Below, in pieces: positions 2,410-3,033 of a stretch of DNA of 17,129 bases. Source of the stretch: a virus; the UHGV virus genome UHGV-0039940; one strand, given 5' to 3'. The notes beneath the pieces are model-generated. The model saw only the letters and a program-made list of their open reading frames with translations. It made no database searches and was not told the origin of the DNA. The first letter of the stretch is position 1. The number at the start of each line of letters is the position of its first letter. The translations under genes were made by a program, and so were the position numbers.

Positions 2410-3033
2410 TTATGCGGCCTCGGAAGGAAGTCCAATCATCTTATTCAAATCTTCTACCCGTAAAGCAGGAAGTGCTGTACTTGCTTTATCTGCTTCTTTT
2501 GGTAGCAATTCTTTGCTTTCAGGCCAAACTTCAATAAATCGCTTAACTGTTGTGACTGAGTTTAAAGCAGCCCATACATTTGATTCGATATCCTTTTTCT
2601 TGGCTTCAAGTTTTTGTTGCAATGCGCAGATTTCATCAAACCTTTTTGTTATTTCGTGCTCTGCGTCAAACATGCATTTATCTTTGGTCGGAGTAGGGAG
2701 CAATATATCTTTGCCGTTGCCGTCTTTCCCATATGAATGCCATCCAACCCTTCTGCCAGATACAGTCAGATAAATTGAAGTAGAACTAACATCGTATGAG
2801 TAAAATGAACATCCCATCTTTTCAAGTTCTTCACTTATAGCTACCAACTTGGATGATAACTGATCCACTTCCTCAGTTTTCTTTTTACCGCCAAACGCAA
2901 TAACTCTGGCGTCAAGTGCAAGCTGGTTCTTTAACTTTGTTACTTCTTCAAGTTCAGTGAAAACCCCAGACTTAATTAAAGCGTTACGAGCGATTTCCTC
3001 TTTCATTCTCGTAGTTAAGCGGATTGATGACAT
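2410..3033 (-). CDS. Hypothetical protein (207 aa) in the N-cIII accessory slot; no family recognised
   Basis: ORF with ATG at 3033 (MSSIRLTTRMKEEIARNALIK...) preceded by GAGAGGAA; the longer in-frame extension to 3093 lacks an RBS. Visibly AT-rich compared with the flanking lambda-like genes. Confidence 0.6.
   Translation of the reverse strand: MSSIRLTTRMKEEIARNALIKSGVFTELEEVTKLKNQLALDARVIAFGGKKKTEEVDQLSSKLVAISEELEKMGCSFYSYDVSSTSIYLTVSGRRVGWHSYGKDGNGKDILLPTPTKDKCMFDAEHEITKRFDEICALQQKLEAKKKDIESNVWAALNSVTTVKRFIEVWPESKELLPKEADKASTALPALRVEDLNKMIGLPSEAA

Follow-up and report, generated by a model that had tools for sequence, protein, structure and literature searches.

A portable Nmad5-family gene in the N-cIII interval of a lambda-like phage genome: a possible early, non-catalytic accessory to phage DNA replication or recombination

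Introduction

Nmad5 (nucleotide modification associated domain 5) is a protein family that was reportedly defined by Iyer et al. in 2013, and its name is said to come from an association with base-modification genes. In this study, we analyzed a gene of this family, nmad5, located between N and cIII in a stretch of 17,129 nucleotides (nt) of the virus genome UHGV-0039940 (this whole stretch is hereafter called the window), which represents the early region of a lambda-like phage. In the literature searched, no nucleotide- or DNA-modifying activity was reported for any Nmad5 member, and no assay showing a role of Nmad5 in base modification was found.

The Nmad5 proteins of two phage groups are among the closest described systems. 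In M6-type phages, nmad5 has been listed within the thymidine-hypermodification cassette (PMC9476957). In Dhillonvirus, mutants that escape the Tmn defense system carry the Nmad5 substitution K216E (SMA8) or K296E (SM_S22), and reverting the escape mutation restores Tmn sensitivity; phages with nmad5 deleted stay sensitive to Tmn, and attempts to clone the gene failed, apparently owing to its toxicity (PMC11846954). The same paper cites a prediction that Nmad5 acts in modified-base biosynthesis. In the papers found, the family is tied to a function through context only. Additionally, a 2026 preprint has described T2 RIIB, which its authors call a replisome-associated early protein, as a trigger of Tmn (PMC13001434).

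Family assignment and coding sequence

The nmad5 gene extends from an ATG at 3033-3031 to a TAA at 2412-2410, as read from the sequence, with the following features:

2410..3033, minus strand: nmad5 coding sequence, 207 amino acids (aa) plus stop, Pfam PF18757 and PHROG 1965
3041..3046, minus strand: Shine-Dalgarno sequence GAGAGG, 7 nt 5' of the nmad5 ATG, read directly

A longer open reading frame (ORF) with a TTG start (2410-3093, 227 aa) is also available; the ATG at 3033 is nevertheless the start, because all homologs begin at the equivalent of MSSIRLT. The encoded protein matched PF18757 (E=1.3e-70; 238.1 bits with a cut-off of 27) over residues 4-203, which align with positions 1-206 of the 206-position profile. 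This family corresponds to InterPro IPR040835 (Nucleotide modification associated domain 5). The protein also matched PHROG 1965, whose function is unknown (E=9e-83). Relatives in the databases bear the NCBI/PGAP name "Nmad5 family putative nucleotide modification protein", and a gene so labeled was found in 211 of 5,426 complete Escherichia coli genomes in RefSeq (3.9%), with 90-99% identity. A search of NCBIfam gave no matches.

A profile search of 1.84 billion representatives recovered 2,284 family members at E<=1e-3, nearly all of about 200 aa (the top 150 being mostly 190-220 aa), and a scan of genome contigs yielded four loci only. All listed relatives, like the protein of the window, stand alone as single-domain PF18757 proteins. 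Domain fusions were considered as a functional clue and rejected, since every listed relative has a single domain. The family is large, exceeding 2,000 clusters at 50% identity, and occurs in temperate and virulent phages of many hosts.

The GC content of nmad5 is 0.39-0.40, compared with 0.51-0.53 for exo-bet-gam, and the median ratio of nonsynonymous to synonymous substitution rates (dN/dS) was 0.30 over 64 distinct alleles. The Pfam and PHROG matches, the 2,284 relatives, and the dN/dS value show that nmad5 is a real gene under purifying selection and not a chance ORF. These results agree with an earlier note, made from the sequence alone, in describing a real, AT-rich gene with its own ribosome-binding site. 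The same note recognized no family, a statement overturned by the full-length PF18757 match and the PGAP annotation. Existing annotation thus already placed the gene in a named family without an established function. It had also been proposed that clear homology to a known replication or recombination protein would speak against accessory cargo; a clear family match was indeed obtained, but because the Nmad5 family is itself uncharacterized, it does not strictly amount to such homology.

Position and mosaic distribution of the nmad5 module

As the earlier note had placed it, nmad5 lies in the accessory slot between N and cIII, with the following features around it:

3095..3478, minus strand: N-type antiterminator gene (PF25694), directly 5' of nmad5
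3034..3098, minus strand: 5' leader that travels with nmad5, from shared-block starts in 80 contigs
2045..2185, minus strand: cIII (PF02061), the downstream flank, 46 aa here
2248..2275, minus strand: terminator-like hairpin GCCCTCCAATGTGAGGGC followed by a T-run, with the stem GCCCTC..GAGGGC at 2275-2258
3727..3755, minus strand: pL-like promoter TTGACC-17-TACTAT, with no further promoter-like site found within 1800-4000

Positions 457-2247 correspond to lambda exo-to-cIII with 97.6% identity, and positions 2247-2406 correspond to the intergenic sequence between ral and ea10 (lambda 33,920-34,081) with 96.9% identity, so that lambda-like sequence resumes 4 nt past the nmad5 stop codon. The junction at 2247 skips lambda 33,523-33,920; ea10 is absent from the window because the lambda match jumps there from just 5' of cIII into the ea10-ral intergenic sequence. 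The earlier note had assigned to the gene a downstream terminator (2252-2276). A terminator-like hairpin is present, but it belongs to the lambda backbone and not to nmad5 itself, because it lies inside the lambda-homologous block 2247-2406.

The gene content of the slot was compared over 80 IMG/VR lambdoid contigs carrying nmad5. Nmad5 showed 94-100% protein identity across these contigs, whereas cI, N, cIII, and the recombination genes were very different or unrecognizable. The shared block started at 3098, just past the N stop, in half of the contigs (40 of 80) and at 3053-3068 in another 20, and it ended 30-160 nt past nmad5. An N-like ORF was found within 1.5 kb 5' of nmad5 in 79 of the 80, with a median gap of 62 nt. 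The order orf28-ral-nmad5 occurred in 11 contigs, and ea10 directly followed nmad5 in 13. Therefore, nmad5 is an independent portable mosaic module that naturally sits at the ral-ea10 junction, a site empty in lambda. Its combination with ral/orf28, ea10, and other cargo bears out the view of this slot as a mosaic accessory slot. We also considered nmad5 as a substitute for, or an allele of, ral and rejected this, since both genes stand in tandem in 11 contigs; lambda Ral (66 aa) gave no tblastn match in the window.

Outside these contigs, Klebsiella prophages carry a 58%-identical homolog directly after the repressor gene and ahead of kil. In the Stx2a phage Stx2_716 (LC616058), an IS3-family insertion sequence (IS) interrupts nmad5 near codon 33; the element occupies 1238-2451 of the LC616058 stretch compared and contains transposase ORFs of 108 and 296 aa. 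A tblastn search matched 48 records of Stx2a-converting phages, and among the matches listed, all seven cover only residues 34-207. The interruption indicates that nmad5 is dispensable in the Stx2a phages. A literature search on the carriers HK542, mEp235, and PhiR12 found nothing functional.

Within 1800-4000, pL was the sole promoter-like site found. We infer that nmad5 is transcribed from pL through N antitermination, and therefore that it would be made in lytic growth or upon induction and be silent in the repressed prophage.

Predicted structure and conserved residues

Structure prediction, which the earlier note had suggested, gave an AlphaFold2 model (21-sequence alignment; mean predicted local distance difference test score, pLDDT, of 84.7) but led to no solved relative: sequence and profile searches of the PDB found none, Foldseek against the PDB gave nothing at E<=1e-3, and a fold search of BFVD returned only other Nmad5 proteins. 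In the model, three helices form the N-terminal part (8-72), followed by a small region of beta structure (86-122), one long helix (127-158), and short helices toward the C-terminus. The most conserved part of the protein is its C-terminal segment:

2413..2550, minus strand: aa 162-207, the most conserved segment, TTVKRFIEVWPESKELLP...LPALRVEDLNKMIGLP

Residues 162-199 were nearly invariant over the 64 alleles, and residues 185-207 had low pLDDT though strongly conserved. With isolated beta-bridge residues at positions 5 and 162, the model appears compatible with packing of the conserved N-terminus against the conserved C-terminal motif. All family motifs were found in the protein of the window (N-terminal RLT, GG turn, TTxK[KR]L..WPExxELxP, and LNxxIG[LI]P), including the conserved positions R5, G48, G93, T162, W170, P171, E172, E175, P178, N197, and G201. 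No recognizable catalytic fold or motif was found by sequence, profile, or fold searches. The protein is neutral, with 32 acidic and 32 basic residues and an isoelectric point of 6.8; on these grounds, and since no structural match was found, a DNA mimic of the Ocr or ArdA type was rejected.

The residue associated with Tmn escape in Dhillonvirus has a counterpart in this segment:

2539..2541, minus strand: codon of R165, which aligns with Dhillonvirus K216/K296 in the motif TTxK[KR]LIExWPE

R165 lies five residues before the invariant W170, so that the sole experimentally informative residue of the family falls in its most conserved motif. A genetic interaction with Tmn is known only for the Dhillonvirus homolog, whose escape residue has R165 as its equivalent in the lambdoid protein.

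We confirmed that K296 of the 334-aa SM_S22 protein (CDS0006) is K216 of the 254-aa frame. The 334-aa coding sequence (361-1365 of the stretch compared) starts 80 codons upstream of the usual 254-aa frame and overlaps an opposite-strand scaffold gene. Its start is probably over-called, which accounts for the K296 and K216 numbering in PMC11846954.

Gene neighborhoods across the family

The gene orders around nmad5 in other phages were as follows, where SSB is a single-stranded DNA-binding protein:

N4-like podoviruses: helicase, PolA, DUF6378, ThyX, Nmad5, exonuclease, primase, Sak4-like, SSB
M6-like Yuaviruses: aGPT-Pplase1, Nmad5, small ORF, thymidylate-synthase homolog, and further on PolA
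Providencia-type prophages: repressor, Nmad5, one further gene, DUF2800 PD-(D/E)XK nuclease, Enc34 single-stranded DNA-binding protein, PolA
Jilinvirus: Nmad5 between helicase and Holliday-junction resolvase, with a methylase nearby
Vibrio phage: Nmad5 near RecE and a replication initiator
Cyanophage: helicase, and further on Nmad5 and exonuclease
Metagenomic contigs: Nmad5 with DNMK, HD nucleotidase, RNase_T, Pol III alpha, and ThyX
Dhillonvirus and Vibrio phage VchM-138: Nmad5 as the lone opposite-strand gene in the structural module

Neighboring genes were also counted in 24 Nmad5 lineages (clusters at 60% identity), each represented by a single locus, with four genes on each side and a crude ORF caller. 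AAA_24, DNA_pol_A, Helicase_C, and S24 repressors led the count with four members each, and PD-(D/E)XK nuclease families reached six in all. Enc34 single-stranded DNA-binding protein, VapE, ResIII, HNH, DnaB, and annealases were also present, and ThyX was found once. No aGPT-Pplase or methylase was found among 25 of the 53 matched neighbor families. In the window, the neighbors of nmad5 are N, cIII, kil, gam, and bet, and the association with modification genes was not seen. The dominant theme of the family neighborhoods is DNA replication and recombination, and rarely base modification. Since the usual neighbors are replication or recombination genes rather than modification genes, the current product name, "nucleotide modification protein", is probably misleading. 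In N4-like phages, two neighbors of rIIB- and rIIA-like size were considered as rIIB and rIIA; they proved to be the exonuclease and the primase, and the idea was rejected.

Possible functions of Nmad5

We tentatively favor a role for Nmad5 as an early, non-catalytic accessory to phage DNA replication or recombination. Judging from context only, it would be an early, mostly helical factor, active at the stage of phage DNA replication or recombination, that does not chemically modify nucleotides. The protein may lack catalytic function and may bind a partner, which could be a conserved host protein or machinery associated with DNA, through a surface formed by the conserved C-terminal module (T162...WPE...ELLP...LNxxIGLP) packed on the N-terminal RLT segment. 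The gene would then be dispensable accessory cargo in lambdoid phages and a fixed part of the replication module in some virulent genera.

Several points weigh against this view. Direct functional evidence was found for no Nmad5 member, and gene context is guilt by association in early operons that are rich in replication genes anyway. The lone opposite-strand insert in the structural module of Dhillonvirus and VchM-138 looks more like a moron or a counter-defense gene. The rarity of nmad5 in E. coli (3.9%) and its disruption by an IS in Stx2a phages indicate that it is not needed for lambdoid replication. Also, the conserved residues R5, R43, T162, E172, E175, and N197 could form a catalytic or ligand site.

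It is possible, though rather unlikely, that nmad5 is counter-defense or defense-interacting cargo, whose early product inhibits, or is sensed by, a host immune system such as a Tmn-type membrane NTPase or a nuclease attacking replicating phage DNA; this reading comes near the anti-defense idea of the earlier note. A defense-related role was kept in play because the Dhillonvirus homolog determines Tmn escape, through a K-to-E change in the conserved motif, and because its cloning was blocked by apparent toxicity (PMC11846954). The slot holds ral and other accessory cargo, and the gene is sporadic in lambdoids, with 211 of 5,426 genomes carrying it; its flanks are common to many phages, but coverage of the 2200-3500 query reaches at least 80% in only 17 of 344 records. 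The opposite-strand placement in Dhillonvirus and VchM-138 is moron-like, and the conserved, low-confidence C-terminal tail of the model may resemble a partner-binding peptide. However, deletion of nmad5 has no effect on Tmn sensitivity (PMC11846954), and wild-type Nmad5 is therefore neither the sole trigger nor an inhibitor of Tmn. The family holds a fixed syntenic position in the replication modules of N4-like phages and Yuaviruses, and at least 146 Dhillonvirus-type records contain it, a pattern closer to that of a core gene than to that of an arms race. The protein matched no PADLOC-DB family at E<=1 (PADLOC comprising defense models, not anti-defense models), and the dN/dS of 0.3 gives no sign of diversifying selection.

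A broader proposal, that Nmad5 is a misnamed, widespread, and portable early protein on the replication or recombination machinery that is read by, or tunes, Tmn-type membrane NTPase defenses, appears doubtful. If Tmn does read Nmad5, one small module would switch the sensitivity of a phage to a defense system, and HK542, mEp235, PhiR12, and some Stx1 phages, compared with lambda and its empty ral-ea10 site, would constitute a natural isogenic system. Because lambda lacks nmad5 at an exactly definable junction, adding the gene back in the best-understood phage would be straightforward. The gene itself is an ordinary catalog entry; its value lies in the indication that the family name is probably misleading and in the clean test of the link to Tmn that lambda would allow.

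A true base-modification accessory, by which Nmad5 would help to install or regulate a modified base, perhaps with the phage Dam or host methylases, is improbable. The window contains a single DNA-modification gene:

9852-10406, plus strand: Dam-type N6-adenine methyltransferase (PF05869, E=1.8e-64), in the nin region of the pR operon

This methylase and the one near the gene in Jilinvirus might speak for such a role, as might the family name, the place of the M6-like Yuavirus gene between aGPT-Pplase1 and a thymidylate-synthase-like gene in a thymidine-hypermodification cassette, and ThyX adjoining nmad5 in N4-like phages. However, the dam gene lies 6.8 kb from nmad5 in the other early operon, and no modification enzyme adjoins nmad5 in the window, in the Klebsiella and Providencia prophages, or in most of the lineages sampled. 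The lack of a recognizable catalytic fold or motif also counts against modification, and we know of no lambdoid phage that hypermodifies its DNA.

Superinfection exclusion of the SieB type by a prophage-expressed Nmad5 is very improbable: its position in the sieB interval of lambda is the one point in its favor, whereas lambda SieB gave no tblastn match in the window or the 80 related contigs, the family also occurs in strictly virulent phages, and the expression in a lysogen that exclusion needs is unlikely, because the gene sits 3' of N in an operon repressed by cI and no promoter-like site besides pL was found. The remaining probability falls to some other function.

Other features of the window

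From the right, the minus strand encodes cI, three genes in the rex position, the pL-like promoter, N, nmad5, cIII, kil, gam, bet, and exo, and the plus strand encodes O, P, NinB, Dam, antirepressors, NinG, and Q. Further features were as follows:

5448-6170, minus strand: cI
3975-4595, 4592-5080, and 5097-5438, minus strand: three genes between pL and cI (the rexB/rexA position of lambda)
2218..2237, minus strand: second hairpin, upstream of cIII
2140-2198: Lambda_thermo thermoregulator RNA element of cIII, an Rfam match, intact

In the rex position, a 113-aa DUF3024 protein matched the PADLOC candidate defense family PDC-S43 (E=7e-42). The other two proteins, of 206 and 162 aa, belong to no convincing family, and the 206-aa one had only a weak LmuB-like match (E=0.016). 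These three genes likely represent a prophage-encoded defense cassette. The cIII gene has an in-frame stop at codon 47 (2045-2047), where lambda has Ser47, resulting in a protein of 46 aa instead of 54 aa; the codons past this stop still read NTYGYPD.

The exo gene carries a perfect 265-nt direct repeat (182-446 and 457-721, spacing 275 nt), that is, two copies of the segment found at lambda 31,734-31,998. The spacing is not a multiple of three, and the exo ORF ends after 105 aa (434-751). These observations indicate that exo either was disrupted by a tandem duplication or is affected by an assembly artifact. A TerB-domain protein (PF05099, E=1e-15) is encoded at 13745-14248 on the plus strand, just 3' of the Q gene; the site downstream of Q is a frequent location of late-operon cargo in Stx-type phages.

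Comparison with described systems

The protein of the window shares with the PF18757 family its length, single-domain architecture, and conserved motifs, and no sequence-level difference was found; the base-modification neighbors behind the family name, however, are absent around nmad5 and in most of the lineages sampled. The M6-like Yuavirus homolog aligns over the C-terminal 87 aa with 29-31% identity and is likewise encoded early, close to a DNA polymerase gene, but its flanking genes are those for aGPT-Pplase1, a kinase, and a thymidylate-synthase homolog, none of which occurs in the window.

The Dhillonvirus homologs (SM_S22 CDS0006 and SMA8 CDS7) matched residues 103-203 of the protein in tblastn with about 31-33% identity (E of about 1e-6), and they are only about 25% identical to it overall, with a large insertion in their middle part. 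In Dhillonvirus, nmad5 stands alone on the opposite strand within the head module of a virulent siphovirus, whereas in the window it belongs to the pL operon. RIIB of T2/T4 is comparable to Dhillonvirus Nmad5 as an early protein whose mutations escape Tmn (PMC13001434), an analogy for which no homology is claimed. In lambda, ral, orf28, sieB, and ea10 occupy the same interval and operon as nmad5; it resembles none of them in sequence, yet the sequence just 3' of nmad5 is the one found just 3' of lambda ral.
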